Positions 2,318 through 24,400 of a DNA stretch of 64,000 nucleotides are shown one piece after another (the stretch's first letter is position 1; every line of letters starts with the position of its first letter). The stretch is taken from IMG/VR virus record IMGVR_UViG_3300023174_000061. One strand, written 5' to 3'. The DNA comes from a virus. The position numbers and the translations under genes were made by a program. The notes below the pieces were generated by a model. That model was not told where the DNA came from, made no database searches, and saw only the letters and a list, made by a program, of their open reading frames with translations.

Positions 2318-2691
2318 TTTCTAAACCAGTATTGGGCACAAACAAGAAGAAAATTAAAATGAGTTGGATGGAGTACATCTTCACACACCTTATTCCTACT
2401 TGGTTTCATTCATTTAATGCTAACTTTGTAATGTGGAGAGACCTTGTAACTGGGGATTATGAGAAATATACTCTTCTTAGAGATGATGAACCATTTCAAG
2501 AGTGTTATGATTGGTTTTGGTGTAGTATAAATCTTGATGAAACCTATTCTAAAGAGTTCCTTGAGTATCTTATGCAAATGGTAGATGATATAGAGACTGG
2601 TAAGGTAGAGACAGTTCCACTTACCGAAGATTTCTTTGATAGACTAAAAGACCTTACTGATGGTGTGGAGTTAGACGACGAGACCACTTGA
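2314..2691 (+). CDS. Hypothetical protein
   Basis: 125-aa ORF; stop lies inside element copy 1. Confidence 0.8.
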   Translation: MISKPVLGTNKKKIKMSWMEYIFTHLIPTWFHSFNANFVMWRDLVTGDYEKYTLLRDDEPFQECYDWFWCSINLDETYSKEFLEYLMQMVDDIETGKVETVPLTEDFFDRLKDLTDGVELDDETT

Positions 2692-2737
2692 CGAACTGGC
2701 ACACTAAACGGGCACGGGTCGTAGGACCTGCTATAAT
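2680..2737 (+). promoter_or_regulatory. Early palindrome-promoter element, copy 1
   Basis: GAGACCACT-N6-ACTGGCACA, 28 nt, then TATAAT (TGn-extended). Confidence 0.8.
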
Positions 2738-2759
2738 AAGAGGACACAAGCAAAGGCAA

Positions 2760-3023
2760 ATGCTTACTTCAAATCTTTCTAAAATCAAACCTAAACTTCG
2801 CACACAAGGCAATGTAACAGGAAACTTTGGAAGACCGAAAGCAAAAGCAGGTTCTTCTATGCGTGATATTGGAATTACAAACGCAAAAGTCGTCAATGTC
2901 GTAAAGCAGGAAGATTACTTGAAACGATTGTATGCTGCTTTTGAAAATACAAATGATGAGAAACTGAAACAGTTTATTTACATTGAAATCAAAAAGATTA
3001 TGGTTCAACGAGGTGAATGGTAA
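2760..3023 (+). CDS. Basic hypothetical cyanophage protein
   Basis: Start reassigned to ATG 2760 downstream of the promoter; MLTSNLSKIKPKLRTQGNVTGNFG. Confidence 0.8.
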   Translation: MLTSNLSKIKPKLRTQGNVTGNFGRPKAKAGSSMRDIGITNAKVVNVVKQEDYLKRLYAAFENTNDEKLKQFIYIEIKKIMVQRGEW

Positions 3024-3289
3024 TGGAACATCCGCACACAAAACTAGAACGCATTTGTAAGGAATTGAAAGAGATTGTAAAATCTGAAAACTCACTTCAT
3101 ATGATGGATATGAACCTCAATTCAAGTGATGTAGATACACTTGATGAAGTGATTTCTATGATTGAAGAAATTGTAGATTATGACCCAACACCACAATATC
3201 TTTATGATAATGATGGTGGAGAACCTCCAATCAGTGCGGAAGAAATGCACTCTGGTGCTTGGAGACAACATCAAGAGTTTCATTCTTGA
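3017..3289 (+). CDS. Acidic hypothetical protein
   Basis: 90-aa ORF with DYDPTP...GGEPPIS motif; ends at element copy 2. Confidence 0.8.
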   Translation: MVMEHPHTKLERICKELKEIVKSENSLHMMDMNLNSSDVDTLDEVISMIEEIVDYDPTPQYLYDNDGGEPPISAEEMHSGAWRQHQEFHS

Positions 3290-3294
3290 TACGA

Positions 3295-3353
3295 TGTGCC
3301 AGTTGTAGCACTGGCACACTAAATAAGCACAAACCCCTCTGGGGTGCTATGAT
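3295..3353 (+). promoter_or_regulatory. Early palindrome-promoter element, copy 2
   Basis: Perfect TGTGCCAGT-TGTAGC-ACTGGCACA, 29 nt, then TATGAT. Confidence 0.85.
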
Positions 3354-3372
3354 TACGAAGTAAATCACTCAA

Positions 3373-3501
3373 ATGATGCCCAACACGTTCAATTTTACTG
3401 GTGATGCCACTACCTTCCTTGGTTTGGTTGGTGTTATTAGCACTGCTGTTATTCTTATTACTGTTTTCCGTTCTTATTGGTCTAGTCCTCTCAACAAATG
3501 A
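3373..3501 (+). CDS. Small single-pass membrane protein (42 aa)
   Basis: MMPNTFNFTGDATTFLGLVGVISTAVILITVFRSYWSSPLNK*; first gene after the promoter; ATGA overlap with next gene. Confidence 0.75.
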   Translation: MMPNTFNFTGDATTFLGLVGVISTAVILITVFRSYWSSPLNK

Positions 3502-3716
3502 ATTACTCAAAGTCTATTCAAGATTACGAAAAGGAACTCAAAGAAGCAAAGAAGAAGTATGAGAAACTTCTCAAGCAAATGAAGAAAGCAAGGACCGAAT
3601 ATCACTACTACAATCTGTCTGATGAGGCAGAAGTATTGTATGAGGATATTGCTGATCTTCAAATGACGATTACTGATTTGCGAAAGCAAAAGAAACTTGC
3701 TGAAATTGATGTCTAA
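3498..3716 (+). CDS. Coiled-coil hypothetical protein
   Basis: 72-aa ORF. Confidence 0.75.
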   Translation: MNYSKSIQDYEKELKEAKKKYEKLLKQMKKARTEYHYYNLSDEAEVLYEDIADLQMTITDLRKQKKLAEIDV

Positions 3717-3958
3717 TGTCTGACCTTTATTCTGAAATCCTTGAATTTGAAAAAATGAAAAACATTGACCGTGACCAACTTGTTGAAGATTATGTTCAGC
3801 AAATGATTGAAGGAATGGATTATAAGACTATGGAGTGTTTGGTTTATGATACTCTGAAAGATAATCTAGCAGATTATACTGATGAAGAACTTCTCACAGA
3901 GGTTACAGATTACTACCCAGAATTGCTGGGGGACGTTGATACGGTGGACGGTCTTTGA
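3716..3958 (+). CDS. Acidic hypothetical protein
   Basis: 80-aa ORF; C-terminus encoded by element copy 3. Confidence 0.8.
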   Translation: MSDLYSEILEFEKMKNIDRDQLVEDYVQQMIEGMDYKTMECLVYDTLKDNLADYTDEELLTEVTDYYPELLGDVDTVDGL

Positions 3959-4002
3959 ACTGGCACATAACACTCCCCAAACGGTCCTGACCGTGCTATG
4001 AT
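3944..4002 (+). promoter_or_regulatory. Early palindrome-promoter element, copy 3
   Basis: GTGGACGGT-N6-ACTGGCACA, 29 nt, then TATGAT. Confidence 0.8.
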
Positions 4003-4025
4003 GTATTCATCAAGTCAAGGAGGTT

Positions 4026-4172
4026 ATGATGATTGACACTTGTGTTCTTCACGATGATTACGAGGATTTTGCACAAAAGTTTCTCGGTGTTGATTATGAA
4101 GACTTTGTTGGTCTTCAACTTGGTCTTCCTGACGAAGATGAAATTGAAATTGAATACTCTTTGAGTATTTGA
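4026..4172 (+). CDS. Very acidic small protein (48 aa)
   Basis: Strong AAGGAGG RBS; MMIDTCVLHDDYEDFAQKFLGVDYEDF... Confidence 0.75.
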   Translation: MMIDTCVLHDDYEDFAQKFLGVDYEDFVGLQLGLPDEDEIEIEYSLSI

Positions 4173-4232
4173 TTTCAATAGTCCTGGTGATGACTTAAAA
4201 AGCACCAACTATTAACCTTGCTTTTTTTTATA

Positions 4233-4448
4233 ATGTCTGCCAATCTGGTTGCTCTTGCTGCTGAACTCGTTGACACCAACCCTGCTGGTGCTCAACTGAT
4301 TGTTAATATCACAAAAGCAGAAACTGGTGCTGAACTCGTTGAAGCACTTGATAACTATGATGCTACTGTGCTTGAGAACTACACTGAAGCAGTTGATGAT
4401 GGTTATGTGACCCTGACTGATGCTGATGGTGTTGTAACTGCTCTTTGA
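4233..4448 (+). CDS. Acidic hypothetical protein
   Basis: Start reassigned to ATG 4233 (MSANLVALAAEL...); internal GAELV repeat. Confidence 0.75.
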   Translation: MSANLVALAAELVDTNPAGAQLIVNITKAETGAELVEALDNYDATVLENYTEAVDDGYVTLTDADGVVTAL

Positions 4449-4451
4449 TAT

Positions 4452-4619
4452 ATGGAAATCAATTATTCTTTAAACTACGATTGTCGAGGTGACAATCGTG
4501 ATACTGTTCGTAGTTTTAATATGAATTTCGAGAACCCATCAAATGAAGATTTGATGGAAAACTTGAATACTTGGTTGACTGCGATTAAAGTTCCTCTTGA
4601 AGTTGTGGTTAAACAATAA
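4452..4619 (+). CDS. Small hypothetical protein (55 aa)
   Basis: Hand-translated MEINYSLNYDCRGDNRDTVRSF... Confidence 0.7.
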   Translation: MEINYSLNYDCRGDNRDTVRSFNMNFENPSNEDLMENLNTWLTAIKVPLEVVVKQ

Positions 4620-4627
4620 TATATAAG

Positions 4628-4687
4628 TGTGCCACCTCTTCTAGTGGCACACTACACCCCCCAATCGGGGTGGTTTTACTCTATAAT
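4628..4687 (+). promoter_or_regulatory. Early palindrome-promoter element, copy 4
   Basis: TGTGCCACC-N6-AGTGGCACA, 30 nt, then TATAAT. Confidence 0.8.
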
Positions 4688-4712
4688 AGGTTCATAACCA
4701 AACAAAAAGGAG

Positions 4713-4838
4713 ATGACTACCCCAAATTGGCAACACAACTCGGGAAAACAAAAGAATACCAAAGGAACTTGCAAAGCACAACTCAAAGCACGAAAGCAAG
4801 CACTTCAACACATCAAACGCAAACTGAACTTCAAATGA
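4713..4838 (+). CDS. Small basic protein (41 aa)
   Basis: AAGGAG RBS; MTTPNWQHNSGKQKNTKGTCKAQLKARKQALQHIKRKLNFK*. Confidence 0.7.
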   Translation: MTTPNWQHNSGKQKNTKGTCKAQLKARKQALQHIKRKLNFK

Positions 4839-5236
4839 CTACTGTGACTGCTGACAAAGTTATTCAATACACTCAAACTCTTTGTGAGGTTCTTCGCACC
4901 AATTATCAATCGTATCGTATTGATTCTCACCGCAAATACATTGAAAAGGGTGAGAATGTAGAATGGCACGAAGAGCAAATTGATAAACTCTGTTTAGGTG
5001 AAGGTGTACCAGAGTTTAATATCAATACTCTTCGTAAGTATCATAAGATTATAATGAAAGATTATAATCAAAGTCACGTTCATCTCTTTGTAGATAAAGA
5101 GACTGGTGATGTTTATAAAGCAGCATCATTCAAAGCACCTGCCAAAGGTATTCGGTATAATCTCCTAGATGATACATCTCGTAAGGAAATGTACCAACGT
5201 GCAGACTGGGCAGGGTCATATTTGTATGCACGATGA
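4835..5236 (+). CDS. Conserved T4-like cyanophage hypothetical protein
   Basis: RKYHKI...VHLFVDKETGDVYKAASFKAPAKGIRYNL...ADWAGSYLY; start reassigned to 4835 (ATGA overlap). Confidence 0.8.
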   Translation: MTTVTADKVIQYTQTLCEVLRTNYQSYRIDSHRKYIEKGENVEWHEEQIDKLCLGEGVPEFNINTLRKYHKIIMKDYNQSHVHLFVDKETGDVYKAASFKAPAKGIRYNLLDDTSRKEMYQRADWAGSYLYAR

Positions 5237-5355
5237 ATAGTTTTATCATCTGTTGCTTTACTTTAATGTCTCTTGTAATAGGATTTACAGTATCTCATAA
5301 TGCTGATAAATTATTACAAGAGAGTTGCTTTTTACCTACCAAATGTCAAATATAA
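5233..5355 (+). CDS. Small putative membrane protein (40 aa)
   Basis: ATGA overlap, hydrophobic N-terminus. Confidence 0.5.
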   Translation: MNSFIICCFTLMSLVIGFTVSHNADKLLQESCFLPTKCQI

Positions 5356-5534
5356 CATTCGCAAAAGGAATTGAAGTTTATTACCGTGGAACATACGGTG
5401 TAGTTGATTTCATCTGCGAAAAATACATTACAATTTGTATTAACAGGTTAGAGCATAAATCAAAAGATGTATGTTTGTTAGTTTATCCAAGTCAATTTGG
5501 TGAAATAACATTAGTAAAAGAGAGTGGTAAGTAA
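5343..5534 (+). CDS. Hypothetical protein (small beta-rich)
   Basis: MSNITFAKGIEVYYRGTYGVVDFICEKYITIC... Confidence 0.7.
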   Translation: MSNITFAKGIEVYYRGTYGVVDFICEKYITICINRLEHKSKDVCLLVYPSQFGEITLVKESGK

Positions 5535-5540
5535 TACTGC

Positions 5541-5599
5541 TGTGCCACTTGTAGTACTGGCACACTAAAAGAGCACAGACCCCCTTAATGCCCTATAAT
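5541..5599 (+). promoter_or_regulatory. Early palindrome-promoter element, copy 5
   Basis: TGTGCCACT-TGTAGT-ACTGGCACA, 29 nt, then TATAAT. Confidence 0.85.
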
Positions 5600-5622
5600 A
5601 CAGGGATACAAACAAAACACAA

Positions 5623-6198
5623 ATGTCTTACCTCGAAGATAATCTTCTGCCTTTGATTTTGGATATTAAAACTCCAAAAACTGAGAGTTATATCATGATT
5701 GCTGCTGGTCTTGGTGATCGTACATCTCAAAGCAGCATTTTAATTCAAATTGGAAATAAACTTGAATTTTTTTGGAATAAAGTTATTAGTGCTTGTGTAA
5801 CCAATTTCATTGAAGTTAAGAATACTATTAAGGTGGGTACTAACAATCGGCAGTTGGATCATCTTTTTGAAGCAATGCCGAACACTTATCTTTTTTATCT
5901 TGAAAGTAAGTGCAATTTGAATTTTGATACAGAAAAGAAACCTGCATCTAATGAGAAACTTAAGGCAGTGACTGAAGCAATTTTTGAAAAATATCAAAAA
6001 CCAGTTGAAAATGGATACTTTGTGCCTTGTATTCGCACCATCCCCGTAGATGTTCAGAAAAAATATCCCAATATTAACATTTATGGTGTAGAATGGATGA
6101 TGAATACTATTAAGTGTGATCTATTCACTGTTGATGAATTCTTCACTTTTTTTGAGGAAGTGATTGGTCCTATTTTAGAAGAAAAGATTTATGGTTAA
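5623..6198 (+). CDS. Putative PD-(D/E)xK restriction endonuclease
   Basis: GNKLE...QLDHLF...YLESKCNLNFDTEK catalytic-like motif; overlaps an MTase gene. Confidence 0.55.
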   Translation: MSYLEDNLLPLILDIKTPKTESYIMIAAGLGDRTSQSSILIQIGNKLEFFWNKVISACVTNFIEVKNTIKVGTNNRQLDHLFEAMPNTYLFYLESKCNLNFDTEKKPASNEKLKAVTEAIFEKYQKPVENGYFVPCIRTIPVDVQKKYPNINIYGVEWMMNTIKCDLFTVDEFFTFFEEVIGPILEEKIYG

Positions 6199-7021
6199 AC
6201 CCATTGTAAAATACCAAGGGGGGAAGAGTAAAGAACTCCCCCTAATTAAACAACTTTTGCCCAAACAATTCACAAGAGTTGTAGAACCATTCTGTGGTGG
6301 TGCTGCGGTATCATTTGGACTAGGTTATCCTTCCTTAATAAGTGACATTAACCGTGATGTCATTAACTTATACTCTGTGGTTGCAAATGAAAGTTTGTAT
6401 CCTAGTTTGCAAGTAAGAGTTAATACAATCAAAACTCTAGAACATGATGATCTTGAGAAAGAGTTTTATTGTGCGAGAGAAGCAATCAATCAACCTTGGG
6501 ATTGTGTAAATTCTTATCAAAGAGCATTATCATACATTATTGTGAGGCAGTTGTGCTTCTCTGGTATGGAAAGATACAATGCCAAAGGTGAGTTTAATGT
6601 GCCCTTTGGTCATTATAAGAAGTTTTCTTGCAATTTATCACCAAATCATCACGAATATCTAAAAAAGTATTGTTCTTTTAGATATGGAAGTTTCGTTAAT
6701 TTGTTTGATCAAATCAACTCAAATGATTTTGTATTCATTGATCCTCCATATCTTGAACGTCTTGGTTACACTCAAGGTGATGGTGGTTTGAAATTACATG
6801 AAGACCTTTTAAGTTGCCTCAAAGCAACAAAAGGACAATGGATGATTGTACATTCTGATCATGAGTTCTATCATGAGAGTTATAAAGACTTTAACATTAT
6901 TGAGAAAGACTTTGCATATGCTCAACGATTTGGTAAGGATAAAGATCACAGCGGGGCAAATGTAAAACATCTTTACATTACAAATTATAATACTGTGCCA
7001 CTTGTGGAACTGGCACACTAA
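6191..7021 (+). CDS. dam: DNA N6-adenine methyltransferase (Dam/D12 class)
   Basis: KYQGGK, VEPFCGG, FNVPFG, FIDPPY motifs; target specificity not established. Confidence 0.9.
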   Translation: MVKPIVKYQGGKSKELPLIKQLLPKQFTRVVEPFCGGAAVSFGLGYPSLISDINRDVINLYSVVANESLYPSLQVRVNTIKTLEHDDLEKEFYCAREAINQPWDCVNSYQRALSYIIVRQLCFSGMERYNAKGEFNVPFGHYKKFSCNLSPNHHEYLKKYCSFRYGSFVNLFDQINSNDFVFIDPPYLERLGYTQGDGGLKLHEDLLSCLKATKGQWMIVHSDHEFYHESYKDFNIIEKDFAYAQRFGKDKDHSGANVKHLYITNYNTVPLVELAH

Positions 7022-7051
7022 AAGAGCACGGACCTCAAAATGTGGTATATT
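6994..7051 (+). promoter_or_regulatory. Early palindrome-promoter element, copy 6
   Basis: TGTGCCACT-TGTGGA-ACTGGCACA, 28 nt, then TATATT (TGn-extended). Confidence 0.8.
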
Positions 7052-7057
7052 AAGAAG

Positions 7058-7136
7058 GTGGTGAGGGGGGCAATAAGACCACCCTGCTAACGTCAACTGA
7101 CATCTTGGCAAGTATGCTGTTAGTAAACCTCATCAC
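7058..7136 (+). ncRNA. Candidate multi-stem structured RNA / 5' leader
   Basis: Closing stem GTGGTGAGG/CCTCATCAC, inner stem TGCTAAC/GTTAGTA, further hairpins; begins at the predicted TSS. Confidence 0.5.
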
Positions 7137-7159
7137 TTCAAAGTTCATTTAACAAACAA

Positions 7160-7390
7160 ATGATTACTGACGTTTTTCACTATACGACTTCCCGTTGGGA
7201 TTGGCAAACTGGTGATGTAAATCAAATGTGGATTCAAGAGATTGAAGAAGCACCTGATGTTTATAGGTACATTGCTGTTGCTTATAATCCTCGTAAGGAT
7301 ACGAGTATGGTGATGTCTAATCCTCGTGGGTATTTTGATACTCTACATTGGGTTCGTAAGTTCTGTGGTTCTTTCTCTATTCTTCCTTGA
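7160..7390 (+). CDS. Hypothetical protein
   Basis: 76-aa ORF. Confidence 0.75.
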   Translation: MITDVFHYTTSRWDWQTGDVNQMWIQEIEEAPDVYRYIAVAYNPRKDTSMVMSNPRGYFDTLHWVRKFCGSFSILP

Positions 7391-7392
7391 TT

Positions 7393-7554
7393 ATGCTCTA
7401 TAATATCACCATCAAGTTCAAAGATAGAACTGTTGAGCAGTTTCAACGCAAAAGCAACATAAAACCTATTAACGGTCGCAAACTGCACGATAAGATTGCT
7501 AATGAAATCTTTCCACGAGAGTGGGAAGAAATATCCTCTAAACCTGTTTATTGA
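7393..7554 (+). CDS. Small hypothetical protein (53 aa)
   Basis: Hand-translated MLYNITIKFKDRTVEQFQRKS... Confidence 0.65.
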   Translation: MLYNITIKFKDRTVEQFQRKSNIKPINGRKLHDKIANEIFPREWEEISSKPVY

Positions 7555-7556
7555 TT

Positions 7557-7691
7557 ATGTTTGATTCTACCCTTGATTTATTCTGCGAACACGATGATGC
7601 AGAGTATGCTGATGAGTTTGCGATGGAACTAGAAGAAAAAGCAGCAGAACTAGAAGTTACTGTTGATTATTATATGGCAGAGTTTATGTAA
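7557..7691 (+). CDS. Small acidic protein (44 aa)
   Basis: MFDSTLDLFCEHDD...EEKAAELEVTVDYYMAEFM*. Confidence 0.75.
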   Translation: MFDSTLDLFCEHDDAEYADEFAMELEEKAAELEVTVDYYMAEFM

Positions 7692-7701
7692 CTCTATTTT
7701 T

Positions 7702-7775
7702 GCCCCCATAGTTATAGCAGTTAAAATAATCGCCTTGTAAGCGATAGTCGCGGGTGCAAATCCTCGCTGGGGGCT
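7702..7775 (+). tRNA. tRNA-Thr(UGU), atypical
   Basis: Acceptor stem GCCCCCA/TGGGGGC; anticodon arm ATCGC-CTTGTAA-GCGAT; T arm GCGGG-TGCAAAT-CCTCGC; no encoded CCA. Confidence 0.8.
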
Positions 7776-7791
7776 TTTATACTTTATACGA

Positions 7792-7850
7792 CGTGCCACT
7801 TGTAGCACTGTCCCTATAATTCACCAAAGGCACCTAAAACGTGCTACAAT
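7792..7850 (+). promoter_or_regulatory. Early palindrome-promoter element, copy 7
   Basis: CGTGCCACT-TGTAGC-ACTGTCCCT, 29 nt, then TACAAT. Confidence 0.8.
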
Positions 7851-7871
7851 ACTTGTATTGAATTGATTTTG

Positions 7872-9101
7872 ATGCTTACCCTTCTTAACTATCAACAACG
7901 CACTCTGGATGCCATTAAAGAGCACAACAAGGGTTGCGTGTATATTCCTACTGGTGGTGGGAAGACTGTTGTGATGAAAGAGGACATCAAACAACGGTTG
8001 TTGAATGCAACTGAACCAATGACTGTTGTAGTTGTTGCTCCTCGTATTCTTCTTGCTAATCAACTCTGCTCCGAGTTTGAAGAGTATCTTGGTGAGTTTG
8101 ATATTGTGTATATGCACGTTCATAGTGGTGAAACTCATCACGTTTCTTCTACACATCCTGGTGTGATTGTGGAGCAGAATGAACTTGCAAAGTTATTCAA
8201 CAAGCATCACTTCATCTTCACCACCTATAACTCTTTGGGTCGTGTGAATGATGCTAAAATCAGTGTTGATGTTGTTTATTTTGATGAAGCACATCATTGT
8301 GTGAAACCAAGCAACTTTGTTGGTATTGCTCACACTTCCAAGTATGCTGATAATGCTTATTTCTTCACGGCAACTCCCAAGTTCACAAATGCAGAGCAAT
8401 CAATGAATAATACTGCTGTGTATGGAGAAAAAATCATCTCTATTCCAGCACAAGAGTTGATTGATGTTGGTAGTATCATTCCTCCTCGTATTCATACTTA
8501 CGAAGCAAAGACCATTCGCACTAAAGAGAATGCTGCTTATGTGGATGCAGAGAATATCATTGGTATTCTCAATGATATGGATGATGATGCTCCCAAAGTT
8601 CTTGTTGCTGCTCCTAGCACTCGTGTGATTTGGGATATGTTCACTGAAAGTGATTTGCTACAACAACTCAATGATATGGGTTATGCTGTGCTTCACGTTA
8701 CATCCAAACACGGTGCTTATGTGAATAAGCAGAAGGTTAGTCGTGAGAAATTCTTTGAGATTATGACTGAGTTTGGTAATGACCCTCAACAAAAGTTCAT
8801 TGTGTTTCATTATTCTATTCTTTCTGAAGGAATGAACGTACACGGACTTACACATTGTATTATGCTGCGTAATCTTCCTGTGATTGAGATGGCACAGACG
8901 ATTGGTCGTGTTATCCGTATGAACAAGGATGATCGTAAAGATATTCAAGATGGTAAGATTGCTGCTGGTCAGTTTGCATTCTATCGCAAACCATTCGGCA
9001 CTATTACTGTTCCTGTGCAGAATAACTATGGTGATAAGATTGCTCGGCAACTTGAGAACGTGGTCAATGCTATTTTTGTGAAAGGAGAGTTGTGTGTATA
9101 G
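7872..9101 (+). CDS. SF2 DEAH-box helicase (type III restriction Res-like)
   Basis: PTGGGKT, FDEAH, FTATP, LSEG, QTIGRVIR; start at ATG 7872. Confidence 0.9.
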   Translation: MLTLLNYQQRTLDAIKEHNKGCVYIPTGGGKTVVMKEDIKQRLLNATEPMTVVVVAPRILLANQLCSEFEEYLGEFDIVYMHVHSGETHHVSSTHPGVIVEQNELAKLFNKHHFIFTTYNSLGRVNDAKISVDVVYFDEAHHCVKPSNFVGIAHTSKYADNAYFFTATPKFTNAEQSMNNTAVYGEKIISIPAQELIDVGSIIPPRIHTYEAKTIRTKENAAYVDAENIIGILNDMDDDAPKVLVAAPSTRVIWDMFTESDLLQQLNDMGYAVLHVTSKHGAYVNKQKVSREKFFEIMTEFGNDPQQKFIVFHYSILSEGMNVHGLTHCIMLRNLPVIEMAQTIGRVIRMNKDDRKDIQDGKIAAGQFAFYRKPFGTITVPVQNNYGDKIARQLENVVNAIFVKGELCV

Positions 9102-9129
9102 ATAATTGTATCTGTCCCACATATAATCT

Positions 9130-9294
9130 ATGCCTTTCACAAAGAAATTTCCACAATCAGGTGAAACCACACACATACGAGTTCCAAAAGTTTATGCTGA
9201 GTTAATTTTGGAACTGATGGTTACATTAGACAATCGTTTTGATGTAGATAAGGGCAAACACCTACTAAAGAAGTTTATACACAATCTAACGTGA
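9130..9294 (+). CDS. Small putative ribbon-helix-helix DNA-binding protein (54 aa)
   Basis: MPFTKKFPQSGETTHIRVPKVYAELILELMVTLD...; strand-Pro-helix pattern. Confidence 0.55.
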   Translation: MPFTKKFPQSGETTHIRVPKVYAELILELMVTLDNRFDVDKGKHLLKKFIHNLT

Positions 9295-9308
9295 GACCAA
9301 TGATACGA

Positions 9309-9380
9309 TGTGCCACTTGTAGCACTGTCCCTATAATCGACCAAACCCCCCTGACCCGTGCTATGATTACGGAGTAATCA
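9309..9380 (+). promoter_or_regulatory. Early palindrome-promoter element, copy 8
   Basis: TGTGCCACT-TGTAGC-ACTGTCCCT, 29 nt, TATGAT, then TGATTAC-GGA-GTAATCA palindrome. Confidence 0.85.
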
Positions 9381-9391
9381 AGAGAAAACCG

Positions 9392-9589
9392 ATGCCTGTT
9401 GTTCCTGGTTTTACTTTCAATGAGGAAACTGAAATGATTTCAGCACTTTATAGTGCTGTTGCACTGATGAAACGTTATGAAGAAGAGTCTGTTGATAATA
9501 AAAGTTATTGGAGGCAACGTATAGAAGATTATACAAACGTTGCTGATAAGTTTTCTAATGCCTGCCGCAATGCCATTTACAATGTCTGA
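9392..9589 (+). CDS. Hypothetical protein
   Basis: 65-aa ORF after the promoter. Confidence 0.75.
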   Translation: MPVVPGFTFNEETEMISALYSAVALMKRYEEESVDNKSYWRQRIEDYTNVADKFSNACRNAIYNV

Positions 9590-9746
9590 TATTCAAGAAG
9601 CACTGACCGACAAACAACTGAATACTTTGCGTGATATGTTGTATCACTACAAAGAGTTTCAGGAAGAACTCTATGACTATCCTGAACCTGATACTTTATT
9701 CACTCAAACACAACGAGAACTCTTCACTCTTCTAGACATTGTATGA
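9582..9746 (+). CDS. Small acidic protein
   Basis: Start reassigned to ATG 9582 (MSDIQEALTD...). Confidence 0.7.
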   Translation: MSDIQEALTDKQLNTLRDMLYHYKEFQEELYDYPEPDTLFTQTQRELFTLLDIV

Positions 9747-10003
9747 GCAAACTTCTTGACCTGATTGAACAAAGAGCAATCAAACAATCACGTTTTTCTA
9801 ACACTTCTAACACTATGTCATCTTCTTCTGGTATTAGTTTTCCTGGTGCTCTGACTGTATTGTTTATTGGTCTCAAACTGACTAACGTTATTACTTGGTC
9901 TTGGTGGTGGGTATTGTCTCCTATTTGGATTAGTCTTTCACTTGCAGTTGTAGTTATTGCTATTGCTGTTATCATTGCTATTATTGCTGAATCTTTCAAA
10001 TGA
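9743..10003 (+). CDS. Phage membrane protein (transmembrane Fragile-X-F-like family)
   Basis: GISFPGALTVLFIGLKLTNVITWSWWWVLSPIW signature. Confidence 0.8.
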   Translation: MSKLLDLIEQRAIKQSRFSNTSNTMSSSSGISFPGALTVLFIGLKLTNVITWSWWWVLSPIWISLSLAVVVIAIAVIIAIIAESFK

Positions 10004-10176
10004 CTTACAAAGAACTTCTTGCTGAACTTCAACAACTCAATGATGAGCAACTCAATCAGGATGTTGCAGTTTATGATGAAGGCACCGATGAGTATTATCA
10101 ACTCAATGTAGAGTTAGTGTTTGCGACTGATGCACAAGATGTGCTTGATGTAGACCACCCTATCATTCGTTTCTAA
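10000..10176 (+). CDS. Small acidic protein (58 aa)
   Basis: MTYKELLAELQQLNDEQLNQDVAVYD...DVLDVDHPIIRF*. Confidence 0.75.
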   Translation: MTYKELLAELQQLNDEQLNQDVAVYDEGTDEYYQLNVELVFATDAQDVLDVDHPIIRF

Positions 10177-10442
10177 TGGAATTCTCTAAAATCCTCACAC
10201 TATCAACAGCACATCTTCATCCTTTAGAGGCACAAAAGATTGATAAGGTTTCTTATATTCATAGTGATACTTGTTCTCTGGTGAATGCTGACCCAGAAAT
10301 GTATGAGTTTTATATTGAAGAAAGTATGCCTTGTCTGGTAGATTTGCTGAAATCAGTTAATGAGCAATACGATGATGTTGTTTATGTGTTATTTGATGCT
10401 GATGCAAATGTAGAGGATGTGTTTAGGAAATATGATTGGTGA
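10176..10442 (+). CDS. Hypothetical phage protein
   Basis: LTLSTAHL...YVLFDADA...YDW pattern. Confidence 0.8.
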   Translation: MEFSKILTLSTAHLHPLEAQKIDKVSYIHSDTCSLVNADPEMYEFYIEESMPCLVDLLKSVNEQYDDVVYVLFDADANVEDVFRKYDW

Positions 10443-10675
10443 TGATGACAACTTCTATTAAACAAACAATTATGACACAAATTTCATTCACATCTGGTGA
10501 GTTGTATGATATTATCTCTGCTCTTCAACTTGTAGAAGAAGGAGTATATGATGATGGAGATCATCAAGGTGCTGCTTATTATCAAAATATGATTCAACAA
10601 TTTGAACTCATTTTTGATAAGTTGCAAGAACACGCAGGAGAGGATAAAGTAGCACAACTTGTGCTTGCTGCCTGA
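10436..10675 (+). CDS. Hypothetical protein
   Basis: 79-aa ORF (true start may be downstream). Confidence 0.7.
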   Translation: MVMMTTSIKQTIMTQISFTSGELYDIISALQLVEEGVYDDGDHQGAAYYQNMIQQFELIFDKLQEHAGEDKVAQLVLAA

Positions 10676-10680
10676 CCCTG

Positions 10681-10752
10681 TGTGCCACTTGTAGCACTGT
10701 CCATATAATCCCCCATAGCACCCGATCCCGTGCTATGATTACGGAGTAATCA
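10681..10752 (+). promoter_or_regulatory. Early palindrome-promoter element, copy 9
   Basis: TGTGCCACT-TGTAGC-ACTGTCCAT, 29 nt, TATGAT, then TGATTACGGAGTAATCA. Confidence 0.85.
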
Positions 10753-10763
10753 AAAGAAAACCA

Positions 10764-11183
10764 ATGTCTGTCCCTTTCACTATGAATTACAAAGAAGTTT
10801 ACGAACAGGAAACTGTTGATAAAATTGAAGAACTTCTAGAAGATTCTTATTCTCTGGAAGATATTGTAGAGTTTATTGATGCGAACTCTGAAGCAGATTT
10901 CCGCAATTTTTATGAAGAGTATGTGACTGTTGGTGAGGAGTATTCTTACGAAGCAGTCGATGCTTTCATTGAAGAGTTTGGTCTTCATTCTTTCACTTTT
11001 TCTTGTTTTGAAGATGCTTATCGTGGGCAATGGGAATCCAAAGCACATTATGCAGAGAATTATGTAAGTGATTGTTATGTTGTTGATCTTCCTAGTTTTG
11101 TAGAAGTTGATTGGGAAGCATCATTTGAAAATCTGGATGTTATTTTCAACGGCAATGGTTATGTGTTTAGCACTCAATTCTGA
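10764..11183 (+). CDS. ArdA-like antirestriction (DNA-mimic) protein
   Basis: Very acidic; FEDAYRGQWES...YAENY...VDWEA...GYVF matches the ArdA C-terminal pattern. Confidence 0.7.
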   Translation: MSVPFTMNYKEVYEQETVDKIEELLEDSYSLEDIVEFIDANSEADFRNFYEEYVTVGEEYSYEAVDAFIEEFGLHSFTFSCFEDAYRGQWESKAHYAENYVSDCYVVDLPSFVEVDWEASFENLDVIFNGNGYVFSTQF

Positions 11184-11186
11184 ATT

Positions 11187-11429
11187 ATGAAACTGCAATC
11201 TAAGACTGGTTCAATGGTGGTTGATTTTTATCCAATCAAAACACCAATGGGTAATGTATCCAAAGAGTGGTTTCTAAAAACTCTTACATTTCAAGGTGAA
11301 ACACAATCCAAGAAGTTTGTAAATCGCATTGAGATGAGTCTTGAAGTTGAGAACTATCTCAATCATTCAATTCCTTATGAGGTTGTAGAGTTTAATACAA
11401 TTCCACAACTTGCAAATCCATTTGCCTAG
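11187..11429 (+). CDS. Hypothetical cyanophage protein
   Basis: 80-aa ORF, MKLQSKTGSMVVDFYP. Confidence 0.8.
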   Translation: MKLQSKTGSMVVDFYPIKTPMGNVSKEWFLKTLTFQGETQSKKFVNRIEMSLEVENYLNHSIPYEVVEFNTIPQLANPFA

Positions 11430-11462
11430 TGTAACACGTCCCATATGAGACGCATTATACGA

Positions 11463-11535
11463 TGTGCCAGTAATCCTTCTGGCACATTATACCCCCCAAA
11501 CCCCCCTGACCCGTGCTATGATTACGGAGTAATCA
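11463..11535 (+). promoter_or_regulatory. Early palindrome-promoter element, copy 10
   Basis: TGTGCCAGT-N6-TCTGGCACA, 30 nt, TATGAT, then TGATTACGGAGTAATCA. Confidence 0.85.
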
Positions 11536-11545
11536 ACCAAAGCAG

Positions 11546-12417: not shown

Positions 12418-12620
12418 GACTATCTCTCATCTCTCTCACACTCTATTCCTTATGCTCATAAGTATAGATTATCAATTACAACACAATTACGTTACATTTC
12501 ATAATTAAATTAAATGTATTAAAAAACATAGTTACGTGTTTTGTGTCTTGATATATAATGGTTATTATAAAGGTCCTTATACCCTTATAAATGCCTCTAG
12601 TCCTTGTTGTCTAAGCGAGC

Positions 12621-12649
12621 ATTCTACCATAAGAATCAAAAAATGTCAA
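12621..12649 (-). promoter_or_regulatory. Leftward sigma70-type promoter
   Basis: Minus strand TTGACA-17 nt-TAGAAT with TGn extension. Confidence 0.7.
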
Positions 12650-12712
12650 GTGCCTCACAGACACTCACAGGACTGGCACAGAGCATCTTGACTTATTATA
12701 AGACTTATGCTC

Positions 12713-12881
12713 TGTGGAGAAATAGTTTTCCACAGGTTTCAGTAGTTTTCTATAGGGGAAGTCGTTAGTTTTCCACAGGCAAAGTTTTCCACAGGTTTAT
12801 AAGCATTCGTAGTGTTTGCAAGGGTTTATAAAATTCGTCCTGTGGAAAACTATTCAAAACCTGTGGAAAACCTGTGGAAAA
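12713..12881. repeat. Cluster of TTTTCCACA (cyanobacterial DnaA-box consensus) repeats
   Basis: Forward at 12726, 12769, 12785; reverse at 12841, 12862, 12873; degenerate at 12713 and 12746; extended unit GTTTTCCACAGG. Confidence 0.85.
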
Positions 12882-12883
12882 CT

Positions 12884-13014
12884 CTTCGTGGTCCATAACA
12901 CTTCGTCATAAGACTTCGTTATACATAAGAGTTCGTTATAACACTTCGTTATACTCACAACGCACACATACATTCGTCTTATGTTATAACAACACAATAG
13001 TTTCGTTATAAGAC
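12884..13014. repeat. Short degenerate tandem repeats TTCGTTATA(A)
   Basis: About 7 copies, several spaced 13-17 nt apart. Confidence 0.75.
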
Positions 13015-13016
13015 CA

Positions 13017-13229
13017 CTCCCCCTATGGTTTGCAATTCTTTCAGTCCTGTGCTATACTATTCGTTGTACACAGTTCTGTGTACTATCTTGTAGTCCCCTT
13101 ATCTTATACCTTATAAGCACTTCGTGATTATTGCCCTCTCCCCCTATGGTTTGCAATTACAATCACACAGTGTTACATAAGCACTTATATCCTCCCCGTT
13201 CGTTATAGCACCTCTCCCCCTATGGTTTG
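13017..13229. repeat. Three direct repeats CTCCCCCTATGGTTTG
   Basis: Copies at 13017, 13138, 13214. Confidence 0.85.
13030..13058 (+). promoter_or_regulatory. Rightward sigma70-type promoter
   Basis: TTGCAA-17 nt-TATACT with TGn extension. Confidence 0.6.
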
Positions 13230-13495
13230 TATTATAATCAAACAGTAATGAATATAAACTATTCGTGATTGTTCGTCTATTATAATACAACAGCACTGTT
13301 TGACAGTTATATTTTGTGTTGTTGTATTCTTATTATAAACCGTTGCCCCCGTATATAAGATTAATGGGTCCCTGTAGTCTACACAGTCTTGCTTTTGGCA
13401 GTCAAATACAGTTAAATATAAAAAAAATTCCAGCAAAATTTTTCCAAGTATAAGGAATTGAAAAGATATATAATAAAAAATGCCCTGAGAGAACA

Positions 13496-15509: not shown

Positions 15510-15851
15510 TTGAAACAGTTTTCGATGGGCAATCACCTTCTTTTGGAGGTTTATGGTGTAGAACATAACCTTCTAAACGATGGTATTGCTCTTCAAAAGG
15601 TGATGGAACATGGCATTCAACGTGCTGGAATGACAATTTTGAATATTTTTCAGCATTGTTTTTATCCACAAGGAGTTACAATTGTGATTGCACTCTCGGA
15701 AAGTCATGTTTCATGTCATACTTGGCCTGAGGAAGGTTGTATTGCGATAGATGTTTATACTTGTGGTGAGGGAAATCCAAAATTAATTGCTTTGGAATTA
15801 TTAAAGTATTTTAATTCAGAGAATTATAAACTTCGTCAGTTGGATCGTTAA
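15510..15851 (+). CDS. speD: S-adenosylmethionine decarboxylase proenzyme
   Basis: GNHLL, FYPQGVT, LSESHVSCHTWPE, DVYTCG. Confidence 0.92.
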   Translation: MKQFSMGNHLLLEVYGVEHNLLNDGIALQKVMEHGIQRAGMTILNIFQHCFYPQGVTIVIALSESHVSCHTWPEEGCIAIDVYTCGEGNPKLIALELLKYFNSENYKLRQLDR

Positions 15852-18478: not shown

Positions 18479-21400
18479 ATGTCAGAAATCAAGAGAGTAA
18501 AAATTCAATCAATTGTTGAATCACAAATTCCAGAATTTTTAAATGATGATTCTCCACTTTTTAAAGAATTTTTAGAGCAGTATTATATTTCTCAAGAACA
18601 TCAAACTGGTGTTGTAGATTTAGCAGTCAATCTACAACAATATAAGAGTATTGATAACTTCAATAATGAAACATTTTATACCACAGTTGGAATTTGCACG
18701 ATTTCTTCTGATATTACATCCTTTGATGATACCATTCCTGTCAATCATACTATAGGATTTCCACAAAAATATGGTCTATTAAAAATCAATGATGAAATTA
18801 TTACATATACTGGTATTACTACAAATAGTTTTACTGGATGCGTTCGTGGATTTAGTGGGATAGACCAACATTCAAATAATGAATCTTTCGTTTTTTCAAA
18901 AACATCTTCATCATCTCACACCAAAGCAGAAACAGTAACGAATTTAAACTTATTATTTTTTAATGAAATATTTAAAAAATTTAAAACTCAATTTTTACCT
19001 GGTTTTGAAGATAGAAATTTTACAACTGGATTAAATTTAAAAAATATTTTATCTAGAGCAAAGGATTTTTATATTTCAAAAGGATCTGATACATCTTATA
19101 AAATTTTATTCAGTATTCTTTTTGGTAAAGATATCCAAGTTTTAAAACCACAAGATTATTTGTTAAGACCTTCTGATAATAATTATCTGGTAACTAAAAA
19201 TATTTTAGTCGAACAAATAGTTAGGGATGAAACATTCAGAGTTAGCGATTATGACTTAAGAAAACAATTAAAAGGAAAAACAATATTTGAATCTTTATTA
19301 AATGGAAACACTGCTAGCGCTGCAGTTTATAATGTAGAATATAGACCATTAGATGATAGAGATTTGTATGAAATTTCATTAGATTCAACTTCTTTTGTAT
19401 TTAATTTTGAAACTACAAAAAAAACAAACATTTCAGAATTTGTTGCCGAAGGAGCATCATCAATTATAGTAGATTCTACAGTTGGATTTAATAAAAGTGG
19501 TTCTTTGTTTATAAAAACATCAAATTTATCAAATCCAATAACTCTAACTTATACAGATAAGACTTTAACTGAATTTCTTGGAGTTTCTGGAATTTTTGCA
19601 GATTTAAACTTTGGTGAAGAATTGGTAGAGGAAAACTTTTTATATTCATATCTAGATAATGGATCTAAAGTTGAATTTAGATTAATTAATGTGATTGATA
19701 CTATTGATTATTCAGAAACATCTAGTTTAAGAGTAGGAGATAAAATCCAACTTTCTTCATTTGGAAATGATTTGAATGACAGAAAGGAATTTAATTTTTG
19801 GATTTATAATCTACCAACATCACATACGATAAAATCAATTGTTGGTAATAGAATATATTTTTATGATAGATTGACTTTTATTATTGGAGATAAATTTAAT
19901 TTATTGAATCCGTCTGATGAAAATGATAGTGTTTTATCAGCAACTGTAAAAACTTATGGTTCCAATTCTATTGGATATTATGTTGATATTGAAGAAGTAG
20001 GATTGAATATATCAACAAAAACTGAAATTAAAAAAATAATTAAAAAAGCAAATAGTGCTTTAGATTATTTTCCATCTATTATCAATTTACCAACAGGAGT
20101 ACAGAATACTTATGTTGATTACAATTTTGAAAATTTTTATGTTACTTCTTCTGGATTACCAAATGATGTGATTTATGCAACGGATAGAAAAATAAAAGTT
20201 ACTGCAGAATCAGGTATCACAAGCATATTAAATTGCCCCAATCACAATTTTTATACTGGTGAAAAAATTTATTATGTTTCGTCTTCCAATTCTGGAATTA
20301 AAACTTCAATTTACTTCTTGACAAGTATTGATAGTGATAATATCAGTCTTTCTTACAGTAATACTGATTTGTATACAAAAAACTATATTGAATTTTCGAA
20401 TGTAGGAGATGAAGATTATTTTGTAAAATTAAATTATCAAAACAAAACATTAGAGCATCAAAAATTATTTAAAAAATTAAATTTAATTAAAAAAGAACAA
20501 TTTTTTGATGATCCAGAAAAAAGAAAAACAATTAATAAAAAAATAGGTATTTTAGCAGATGGGGTTGAAATATTTTCAACAACTGTTTTTCAAGATAATA
20601 TTTACTATGGAAAATTAGATTTTGTAAATATTAATGCATCAGGACAAGGATATGATGTAATTAATTTTTCTGGAATAAGTGTAGAAGATAATTCTGGATC
20701 TGGTGCTATAGTTAATGGTTGCATAACAGGAAGTTTAAATGAAGTAAAATTATTATCACCTGGAATTGGTTATCAATCAAAACCAAAAATTATCCTTACT
20801 GGTGGAAATGGTTCTGGAGCAGTATTGGAATCAAATTTAGTAAAAACAAGAATTACTTCAAATTTTAAAGCATCTAGTATATACAGTAATAATATTAATT
20901 TTTCTCAAAATCATAATTTTGATAATTCAGAAGAAGTTTTTTATAATAAAAATTCAAATACTTCTATATCTCCACTTATTGATGGTGCTTCATATTTTGT
21001 GGGAGTAACAAGTACAACACAGATCAAATTATACAAAACAAAAAATGATTCCATATCTGGAATTAATACTATTTCAATAAGTGGTATTGGTTATTCTGGA
21101 GTTCATAGTTTCAAAACAGTAAATTCAAAAAATACAATAACAAAAATATATGTAAAGAATGGTGGTTCTGGATATTCAAATAGATTTGTATCAGTTCCAT
21201 CTAGATTGTCTGTAGACAATCAAACCAATGGAATTAATACCTTTGATGATTATATTTTTGCAAAAAATCATAATTTTAAGAATGAAGATTTGGTGTTATA
21301 CACAACAACAGATACTAAAATATCTGGTATATCCACTCAGACAAATTATTACGTAACAGTAGTTAATGAAAATAAATTCAAACTATCCATTGCTGGGGTC

Positions 21401-24400
21401 TCTACAAATATCTCTAGAGAAAATTATCTCAATAAAAAATATATAAGTTTTGATTCTGTTGGTGTTGGAACACACAAATTTTCATATCCACCAATTGAAA
21501 TTAGTGTTGAGGCAATTAGTGGAATTACTACGACAATTGTAGAACCATCATTGAATCCGATTGTTCTTGGTTCTTTTGATAATATTTTTGTAGAAAATGA
21601 TGGAACTAATTATGGAACACCAGACATTATCAACTTTCACAGAAAACCACTTGTTTCTGTAAGTAAACAAACATCAGATGCATTATTGAAACCAGTAATT
21701 TCTGATGGTTTGATTGTTGATGTTCAAATATTGAATGCAGGAAAAGGATATACAAATGATATTGATATTGTTATTACTAGTAAAACTGGCAAATATGCTG
21801 AATTATTTCCAACTATAGTAGATGGAAAAATTACACAAATTTTAGTCACAAACTCTGGAATAAACTATGATGAAAAAAATACAGAGTTAACAATAGAAAA
21901 AAGAGGTTCTAATGCAACATTTGAAGGTAATGTATTTGAATGGAAAATAAATCAAATTGAAAAAAATAAATCAATTATTAATTCGAATGATGAAGGTATT
22001 ATTACACCAAGTGATAATATTGATTTTGGATTACAATTTGTAAATTATTATCCTTCAAAAAAATTAAGAAAAAATTTAAATAATTTTATTGATATAGAAG
22101 GAAAAGAAAATCCACCAACAGCAGCAACAAATCCATATCAGATTTTGGGATGGGCGTATGATGGAAATCCTATTTTTGGTCCTTATGGTAAGGTAAATGG
22201 GGAAATCAAAAAATTAAACTCAAGTTATAATAAATTTAATGATCCTGAAATAACTGCCTTAATTAATTCAAATTTGAGACCAAACTTTAGATCTGGTTTT
22301 TTTGTTGATGATTTTTATTTTGATAGATCAACATCCAATGGAGATTTGGATGAATATAATGGAATGTTTGTAAACAATCCTGATTTTCCAAATATTAATT
22401 ATGGATATTTTCTTAGCATTGATGGTGAGGGAAATCCACAATATCCATATTTAATTGGTTCATATTTTAAAGATCTACCAATAACAGAAAATTTTGAACC
22501 ATCATTTAATCAAGAATTAAATTTTAATGATTTTGATATAGTAAGAAATACTGGTCCATATTATTTAAATTCTGCATATGCATCTTATGATTTAATTAAT
22601 AAAGTAGAATCAAAATATAAACAAGAATTTGTAGTAAAGCAAATACAGTCTTCTGGTATAAACTCGATATCAATTTATAATTCAGGTCAGGGTTATACAC
22701 CAGGTGATAATATTATTTTTGATAATTCTACTTCTGGTGGAACTGGATTATCTGCTGCAATTTCAAGAGTTAAAGGAAAGGGAATTTCTAATATTCAAAT
22801 TGGAGTATCTACTTTTTCTGGTGTTACTTTTATTACAAAAGGAACAAGAGTAAAGGGAATTACAGGAATACCTCACAATTTGATTACAAATGATGAAATT
22901 TTAGTTACTTCTATTTCTTCTAGTCCCTATAATTATATTCAAGGATTTAAAAAAATATCAGTAAATCAAAAAAGTGTTAGTTTAATAAACAATATTCCAA
23001 ATCAGTCAACTACTGGTGTAACAACTTACATTATTGTAAATGATGTTTCTGGATTTGAAGTCGATAACTTAATTAAAATTGATACAGAAACTTTAAGAGT
23101 TATTGATATTTCATCTTCAGAATCAAAATTATTTGTAAATCGATATGAAAATTATACTGGAATTCACACTGCAGGAATTTCATCTGTTGTATTGCTTCCA
23201 AATACATTTACATTCAATTCCCCACAATATGATGATACCATCATAGAAAATAAAACCACATATTTTAATCCTAGTAATACAATAGGAATACAAACAAGTG
23301 GAACAAATTATTATAAATCGATTGGCATTAAAACTGATTTTGGAACATTTAATGCTGGAATAACCAGTTACATTGGAATTAATACTACTGCATTGCAAAT
23401 TGGTGATTATGTTTCTGGGACTAATGTTTCTGCTGGAACGACTGTTGTAAGTATTGGAATTGGAAGTATTCAAATTTTACCAAATCATACTCTTGGTGGG
23501 GGAATTTCTACTTCTTTAGTTACTTTTAATAGATCAATATATGATAAATTTGTTCCTTCTCGTTCAATTTATATACAAAATCACAAATATTATACAGGAC
23601 AATCATTAACTTATAATGTTGGTTTGAATGGAAATGGCATTGTAGTATCAAATACTGGAACTGGATCTACATTTAGATTGAGTCAAAATCAAACAGTTTA
23701 TGCTGTAAATTTTGGAAATGACTATGTTGGTTTATCTACTTTAGGTTTTACGACAATTACAGGAATTGGATCGACATCAAATTCATTATATTTTAGTTCA
23801 TCACCAAACACTGGATTAGCACATTCTTTGACAACACAATATTCCAAAATTACTGGAACTTTTGAAAATTACTCTGTAACTGTTTCTACAGCACAAACAC
23901 ACGGATTACAAACAAATGATAAAATAAAATTTAATGTATTTCCAAGTTTTTCAAATACAATAAAATTAAGATACGATACCATACTTAGAAAAATCACAAC
24001 AGATAAAATTGACTTCAGTGCTTCTTCAGTTGGTGTAAACACACAAACAAATGAAATTACTATAACTGGTAATAAATTAAAAACTGGTGATAAGATTGTA
24101 TACTATACAAATGGAAATACTGTTATTGGTGGATTAACTAATAACAATACTTATTATATCTTAAAACAAGACCCAGACAAAATAAAACTATCAAGTTATC
24201 TTTATGATACAACTGTTGGAACTTGTATTAGTTTTACAACTGTTGGTACTTCCAATCACAGCATTGCTCTTATCAATCCACCAATCAGTCTCACCAAAGG
24301 TGATGTATTAACTTTTGATTTGAGTGATGGTACAGTTTCTGGTATGGATTTAAGATTATATAAAGATCCAAATTTTGTTAAAGAGATTGAAAACTTTAAA

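Follow-up and report, generated by a model that had tools for sequence, protein, structure and literature searches.

A repeated palindrome-promoter unit of T4-like cyanophages resembles the host yfr2 promoter and coincides with cassette gain and loss

In T4-type phages, the promoter-early stem-loop (PeSL) cassettes are repeated regulatory units, each made of a terminator-like stem-loop and a full −35/−10 promoter. They lie between the small genes of hyperplastic regions, and the junctions of indels and replacements between close relatives fall within them (Arbiol 2010, PMC2839356; Comeau 2014, PMC4122927). An earlier study of cyanophage S-PM2 did not find regulatory-repeat joints of this type (PMC4503421). 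On the host side, an element named CGRE1 was placed 55–57 nt upstream of the yfr2 start site; the GntR-family protein PMM1637 (PlmA) binds it and raises yfr2 promoter activity, according to pull-down, electrophoretic mobility shift and Escherichia coli reporter assays (Lambrecht et al. 2018, PMC6191309). Here we describe an element with features of both systems, the inverted repeat TGTGCCAST-N6-ASTGKCMCA joined to a promoter and repeated along the small-gene block of a 64,000-nt stretch of viral DNA (IMG/VR record IMGVR_UViG_3300023174_000061, hereafter the window). Because its PHROG and Pfam matches include terminase, sheath, portal, scaffold, major head protein, baseplate wedge and gp41-type helicase, and its portal shares 70% identity with the portal of Synechococcus phage S-SSM7, the window is assigned by gene content to the T4-like cyanomyoviruses. 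No near-identical record was present in the phage collection searched. The small-gene block, at 1–16 kb and including a 412-aa helicase, is directly upstream of the baseplate wedge gene (gp6). Block gp69–gp93 of Syn9 has the same position, and PHM2_044–083 of P-HM2 is also directly upstream of baseplate genes.

The ten rightward copies of the repeat reported in the initial annotation were all recovered with this pattern at up to three mismatches, three of them (3295, 5541, and 6994) as exact matches. The same search yielded an eleventh copy, leftward at 12657–12680, which was absent from the earlier list. Shuffles of the window gave a mean of 0.22 matches and never more than 2. The claimed distance to the −10 box was measured in all ten rightward copies: 28, 29, or 30 nt separate the hexamer from the palindrome. 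All ten fit the pattern of the class, the 24-bp dyad TGTGMCAST-N6-ASTGKCACA with a TAnnnT box 28–31 nt further on. The hexamers are TATAAT, TATGAT, TACAAT, or TATATT and, as had been noted, mostly TGn-extended (8/10). A consensus promoter scan lists no −35 for these ten boxes, again as described earlier, and the rightward copies thereby depart from the sigma70-type −35 plus −10 of the PeSLs. TTGACA-like boxes do occur with the element in many relatives and in the eleventh copy. Copies are located directly 3′ of the stop of the preceding gene, or in one case of a tRNA-Thr, except for 2680, 3944, and 6994, which share sequence with the 3′ end of the preceding ORF; in 2680 and 3944, the left arm is degenerate. 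In copies 7792, 9309, and 10681, it is the right arm that is degenerate (ACTGTCCCT or ACTGTCCAT), and it adjoins a second TATAAT. The next ATG follows a copy at about 56–70 nt. Modules of small genes do stand behind each copy, with two to six genes, a slightly wider range than the two to five first given. Each copy very probably represents a 24-base, two-armed docking site for an activating protein, joined to a promoter ahead of small, putatively early genes.

The link with early expression comes from phage P-HM2, for which we set the annotation and the positions of the palindromes against published RNA-seq clusters (Thompson et al. 2016, S2 Table). This genome carries 13 sites, against 1 for a control pattern. 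Palindromes with a −10 at 29–30 nt head PHM2_060, 061, 064, 066, 068, 135, and 136, all of which belong to cluster Early A. Seven of the eight palindrome-headed genes are therefore Early A, compared with 20 of 242 genes overall (p = 6.7e-8). The divergent genes PHM2_064 and PHM2_066 share a single site, at 39292. A peptidase gene and cobS, the two early genes that lie apart from the main block, each have a palindrome of their own. The label "early" given to the window region is thus backed by published P-HM2 expression for genes behind the same element, and by analogy we read the window units as putative early promoters.

The exact palindrome was found in at least 119 IMG/VR stretches. Among named phages, S-SSM7 has 10 copies, P-SSM2 11, the freshwater phage S-SRM01 10, S-PM2 6, and Syn9 2–8. 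The Syn9 palindromes, few of which are good copies, precede gp73, gp78, and gp89/90 in the syntenic block. Pattern scans of T4 and of Pelagibacter phage HTVC008M revealed no palindrome. This type of promoter is common to T4-like cyanophages. A "novel regulatory element" of early genes in Syn9 and P-TIM40, conserved among T4-like cyanophages, was reportedly described by Doron et al. 2016 (ISME J 10:1437). Among the papers searched, none gives its motif. Like that element, the palindrome stands before small early genes 5′ of the baseplate module, the Syn9 palindromes are in the syntenic block, and the P-HM2 early units all carry the palindrome. The element described here probably belongs to the class reported by Doron et al. 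2016.

A host regulon built on the phage-type palindrome was considered and rejected, exact matches in 596 Gb of prokaryote genomes being near chance (78 stretches). Several of these 78 stretches are phage contigs inside cyanobacterial metagenome-assembled genomes (MAGs). A 194-kb contig of a "Synechococcus" MAG (JBJBBP010000001.1; G002:C1, L122) contains six palindromes within 131–139 kb and is as long as a cyanomyovirus genome; it probably represents a phage genome that was binned with the MAG. Among 201 Cyanobiaceae genomes, 192 lack the palindrome at up to one mismatch; the whole set gave 13 sites, against 2 for the control pattern. A few host chromosomes carry the phage-type palindrome, such as L205 (G102:C41:23454) and L200 (G038:C1:114041). 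One host-chromosome palindrome precedes a 16S rRNA gene by about 400 nt, and another stands ahead of a small ORF with a −10 at 29 nt.

Variation among related sites indicates the level at which the element is constrained. In 164 IMG/VR sites, TAnnnT shows a sharp peak at 29–30 nt from the palindrome, and 58 of them have it on both sides, corresponding to divergent promoters. Arm position 8/17, that is, the two S positions, is non-complementary in 182 of 254 distinct sites (72%). In the same 254 sites, the C/A arm variants are uncompensated, the doubly changed form being observed 12 times for 9 expected under independence. Four of the ten window copies fold into strong hairpins (z −2.9 to −6.3 for three and −1.9 for the fourth), whereas six fold no better than shuffles and a U run follows none of the ten. 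Because the arm mismatch is favored, changes are uncompensated, many sites are divergent, and hairpins are not conserved, the element is constrained as double-stranded DNA, a protein site, rather than as an RNA hairpin. The uncompensated arms, the two-sided sites, and the invariant distance agree with the initial proposal of a symmetric site for a protein, set at constant spacing from a promoter that has no −35. A sigma-54-like reading of TGGCAC was discarded for its misfit in spacing, and cyanobacteria are not known to have sigma-54.

The arm of the phage element recurs at host yfr2 promoters. The Rfam model Cyano-1 (RF01701, Yfr2 family) matches 39 of 41 Cyanobiaceae genomes, and upstream of the yfr2 genes we observed CAACTGTCAC-N-GTGACAGTTG, AACTGGCAC-T-GTGCCAGTTG, or a lone GACAGTTG arm. 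The core G[AC]CAGT is enriched 17-fold upstream of yfr2, at a fixed position. When the host register is anchored on the conserved yfr2 −10, located 8 nt before GTGAGG, the host arm ends at 43–45 nt from the −10 (15 of 17 cases), and the left arms of all ten rightward window copies do so as well. Left-arm profiles of phage and host correlate at 0.81 (arm GTG[A/C]CAGTTG, pointing toward the promoter). Six nucleotides after the host arm, an AGnG box is in register with the phage right arm (correlation 0.50, against at most 0.36 for shifted controls). The proximal edge falls at about −55 in both host and window, and this measured position agrees with the published placement of CGRE1 (PMC6191309). 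The phage element and CGRE1 thus have in common the arm (TGT)G[A/C]CAGT(TG), its orientation, its edge, its distance of 43–45 nt to the −10, and a −35-less promoter, activator-dependent in the host and putatively so in the phage. They differ in the partner arm, which adjoins upstream in the host, forming a palindrome of 21–22 bp that the phage element does not show, and lies 6 bp downstream in the phage (24 bp). They also differ in their products, a small RNA for the host promoters and protein-coding cassettes for the phage units. Window copies with a degenerate right arm keep an intact left arm at the host-shared register, as is seen in the single-arm promoters of the host.

A search for GntR domains gave none in five cyanomyoviruses, and each of five host genomes encodes a strong one (G038 has in addition a weak second match). 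Pfam revealed no DNA-binding protein among the window cassette ORFs scanned, and among the papers searched, none links cyanophages to GntR or PlmA. The initial annotation had left the trans-acting factor without a name; host GntR-family PlmA/PMM1637 is now a specific candidate. As the sequence of the left arm, its orientation, and its distance to the −10 are shared with PlmA-bound CGRE1, PlmA (PMM1637) may be the reader of the phage palindrome, an assignment on which we are almost evenly divided.

The closest relatives available for comparison were IMG/VR contig 3300027393_000007 (G206; 88–97% DNA identity in shared blocks) and L071. Among 15 indels or replacements of at least 100 bp over about 14 kb, eight have a junction inside a palindrome-promoter unit (p = 0.015 under a null of 11 of about 45 gene boundaries). 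In G206, two palindromes enclose an additional 1.1-kb cassette, and the single window copy at 9309 reads as the left part of one joined to the right part of the other. Conversely, the window cassette at 5541–6997 (ORF 5623–6198 plus a Dam methylase gene), bounded by copies 5 and 6, is missing in G206, which retains just one ACTGGCACA arm at this site. Further additional cassettes flanked by palindromes were identified in G206 (at 10681) and L071 (at 11463). In less close relatives, the same genes occur in cassettes of a different order, again separated by palindromes. The proposal that the repeats double as recombination joints, to be checked against gain and loss breakpoints in relatives, is supported by this coincidence with cassette gain and loss and by crossovers inside the palindrome. 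Since the crossover points vary within the repeat of about 100 bp, falling in the palindrome, the promoter, or the 5′ untranslated region, the pattern fits PeSL-type homologous recombination between repeated direct units. Cassette indels of this kind bring cyanophages under the PeSL concept, in which repeated regulatory units serve as joints for recombination.

The explanation that we favor, with moderate confidence, is that these are PlmA-read, activator-type early promoter units doubling as homology patches. A 24-bp site, TGTG[C/A]CA[G/C]T-6 bp-inverse, would lie at about −65 to −42, upstream of an extended −10 without a −35. A dimeric protein would read this site as double-stranded DNA and recruit the host RNA polymerase; its likeliest identity would be the host GntR-family activator PlmA (PMM1637), in the cell before infection. 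The units of about 100 bp, being in direct orientation, would act as homology patches, and ordinary phage recombination between them could add, delete, and reorder gene cassettes. The data show the repeat and its geometry, the spread among cyanomyoviruses, the early link in P-HM2, the DNA-site character, the arm and register shared with yfr2, and the cassette indel junctions; activation, PlmA as reader, and the start sites used in the window phage are what we infer. The late promoters dependent on Ogr of P2 and Delta of P4 offer a parallel, with a dyad near −55 before a weak promoter and an activator that contacts RNA polymerase; their sequence is unrelated, their activator is phage encoded, and their genes are late, not early.

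Several observations weigh against this explanation. The eighth palindrome-headed gene of P-HM2, PHM2_053, belongs to cluster Mid B, and six of the 15 indels are away from the element. The host AGnG box is a weak match to the phage right arm, and with an arm layout different from that of CGRE1, one rigid dimer would be unable to bind both alike. PlmA activity is reported to respond to nitrogen and light stress, so that a constitutive early use is not obvious.

The palindrome might instead be read by a phage-encoded regulator, made early or carried in the virion and acting for instance in an early-to-middle shut-off, the yfr2 likeness then being mimicry or chance. Its rarity in hosts, its 6–14 copies in single phages, and an arm layout unlike that of CGRE1 would suit such a protein. 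We nevertheless consider it unlikely: neither a DNA-binding domain in the cassette ORFs scanned nor a GntR domain in the five cyanomyoviruses was found, a site centered near −53 on −35-less promoters is in the position of an activator, immediate-early genes require a pre-existing factor, and the arm, orientation, and 43–45-nt register shared with yfr2 are hard to explain by chance. Another host component might read the site in place of PlmA, for instance some other transcription factor, an alternative sigma factor, or the C-terminal domain of the alpha subunit, acting as on an UP-like element. The absence from T4 and HTVC008M points to some cyanobacterial factor in general; the site spans the position of UP elements (−42 to −65), and PlmA binding to the phage layout is putative. 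We regard this possibility as quite unlikely, as UP elements share neither the GC richness nor the dyad symmetry of the site, and PMM1637 is the sole protein shown to bind the shared arm in the host context (PMC6191309).

Two further readings concern the palindrome itself. Located directly 3′ of upstream stops, in a layout that PeSLs share (PMC4122927), and folding well in four copies, it could be transcribed as a PeSL-type RNA stem-loop that ends or stabilizes the upstream transcript before the early promoter begins the next. This is highly improbable in view of the six copies that fold no better than shuffles, the related sites with their frequent mismatch and lack of compensating changes, and the divergent promoters, symmetric on both sides. 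A terminator in the style of PeSLs was ruled out by the non-conserved hairpin, the missing U run, and the favored built-in mismatch, and an Rfam search of the palindromes and of the leader that follows 6994 matched no known RNA family. The dyad therefore differs from a PeSL in being a DNA–protein site with no conserved hairpin, U run, or −35. The initial annotation had also suggested an integron-like cassette system, in which the palindrome would be the target of a site-specific recombinase excising and inserting cassettes. Single-cassette indels bounded by two palindromes and the hybrid palindrome at one junction are what such a system would leave. Yet neither an integrase nor a recombinase was found among the window ORFs scanned, the crossover points vary as homologous recombination predicts, and part of the indels lie elsewhere. 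Moreover, attC cassettes of integrons are promoterless, whereas the phage cassettes each have their own promoter and no adjacent integrase was found. The integron-like reading did not stand, and we consider it extremely improbable.

The eleven copies are listed in table 1. In the three right-arm-degenerate copies, the left arm GTGCCA followed by 16 nt and TATAAT scores as a second promoter (7793–7820, 9310–9337, and 10682–10709). This second promoter lies partly within the element and ahead of the regular −10, and these copies may therefore be tandem promoters.

Table 1. Palindrome-promoter units of the window
Copy	Position	Strand	−10 box	Arms and setting
1	2680..2703	+	TATAAT 2732-2737	Left arm degenerate, CCACTTG kept; right arm ACTGGCACA
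2	3295..3318	+	TGcTATGAT, hexamer 3348-3353	Perfect palindrome
3	3944..3967	+	3997-4002	Degenerate left arm over the end of ORF 3716-3958
4	4628..4651	+	TATAAT 4682-4687	Spacer 4655-4672 forms a small GC hairpin, then a T run
5	5541..5564	+	5594-5599	Left border of the cassette with ORF 5623-6198 and Dam methylase
6	6994..7017	+	TATATT 7046-7051	Within the 3′ end of Dam ORF 6191-7021; borders the Dam cassette on the right; a conserved non-coding leader comes next, to 7160
7	7792..7815	+	TACAAT 7845-7850 (downstream)	Directly 3′ of tRNA-Thr; degenerate right arm adjoins TATAAT; heads helicase gene 7863-9101
8	9309..9332	+	9362-9367	Hybrid of the two palindromes bounding the extra 1.1-kb cassette of G206
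9	10681..10704	+	10734-10739	Site of an extra G206 cassette that carries its own palindrome
10	11463..11486	+	11517-11522	L071 has an extra 1.1-kb cassette between two palindromes at this site
11	12621..12680 (palindrome 12657-12680)	-	TGgTAGAAT, hexamer 12626-12621	TTGACA 12649-12644, 17-nt spacer

Other features were identified in and around the small-gene block. The tRNA-Thr (UGU) gene at 7702–7775 lies within the sixth cassette, directly before copy 7. The region after the copy-6 promoter (7052–7160) is a conserved non-coding leader or small RNA with a start near GGUGGUGAGGGGGG and a GGUGG/CCACC hairpin. It recurs in G206 (twice), L096, L046, and others, and its GUGAGGGG word matches the 5′ motif of the Prochlorococcus-type Yfr2, with no match to the Rfam Cyano-1 model. 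At 12420–13480, about 1 kb without a convincing ORF, with the eleventh palindrome at its left edge, is dense in short repeats: GTTTTCCACAGG and its inverse about eight times, ACTTCGTTATA-like units about eight times, and CTCCCCCTATGGTTTG three times. Several promoter-like sites are present there on both strands, and the region is a candidate origin or regulatory hub. An S-adenosylmethionine decarboxylase-like gene occupies 15510–15851 (PF02675, E 6e-31), and a small ORF at 1884–2159 matches an Xre/MbcA/ParS antitoxin C-terminal domain slightly below the Pfam cut-off. The structural module contains giant ORFs of 4328 aa (18479–31465) and 2478 aa (33059–40495), in a region with a GC content of 26–31%, compared with 35–38% in the early block.

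Taken in its widest form, which we put forward tentatively and hold to be somewhat doubtful, our proposal is that T4-like cyanophages start infection by borrowing the single GntR-type regulator of their host, PlmA, a partner of the PII-PipX nitrogen and energy signaling system. Their early promoters would be idealized, symmetric copies of the yfr2 element, early transcription would be tied to the nitrogen and light state of the host, and the same units would be joints for cassette swaps. T4-like cyanophages are not known to have the MotA/AsiA system of T4. The shared arm and register turn the question of how cyanophage early genes are activated into a simple test of PlmA against phage promoter DNA. 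If the proposal is true, it would explain why this type of promoter is restricted to phages of cyanobacteria, and the way in which phages take over the main primary producers of the ocean would be linked to the nutrient and light sensing of the host.

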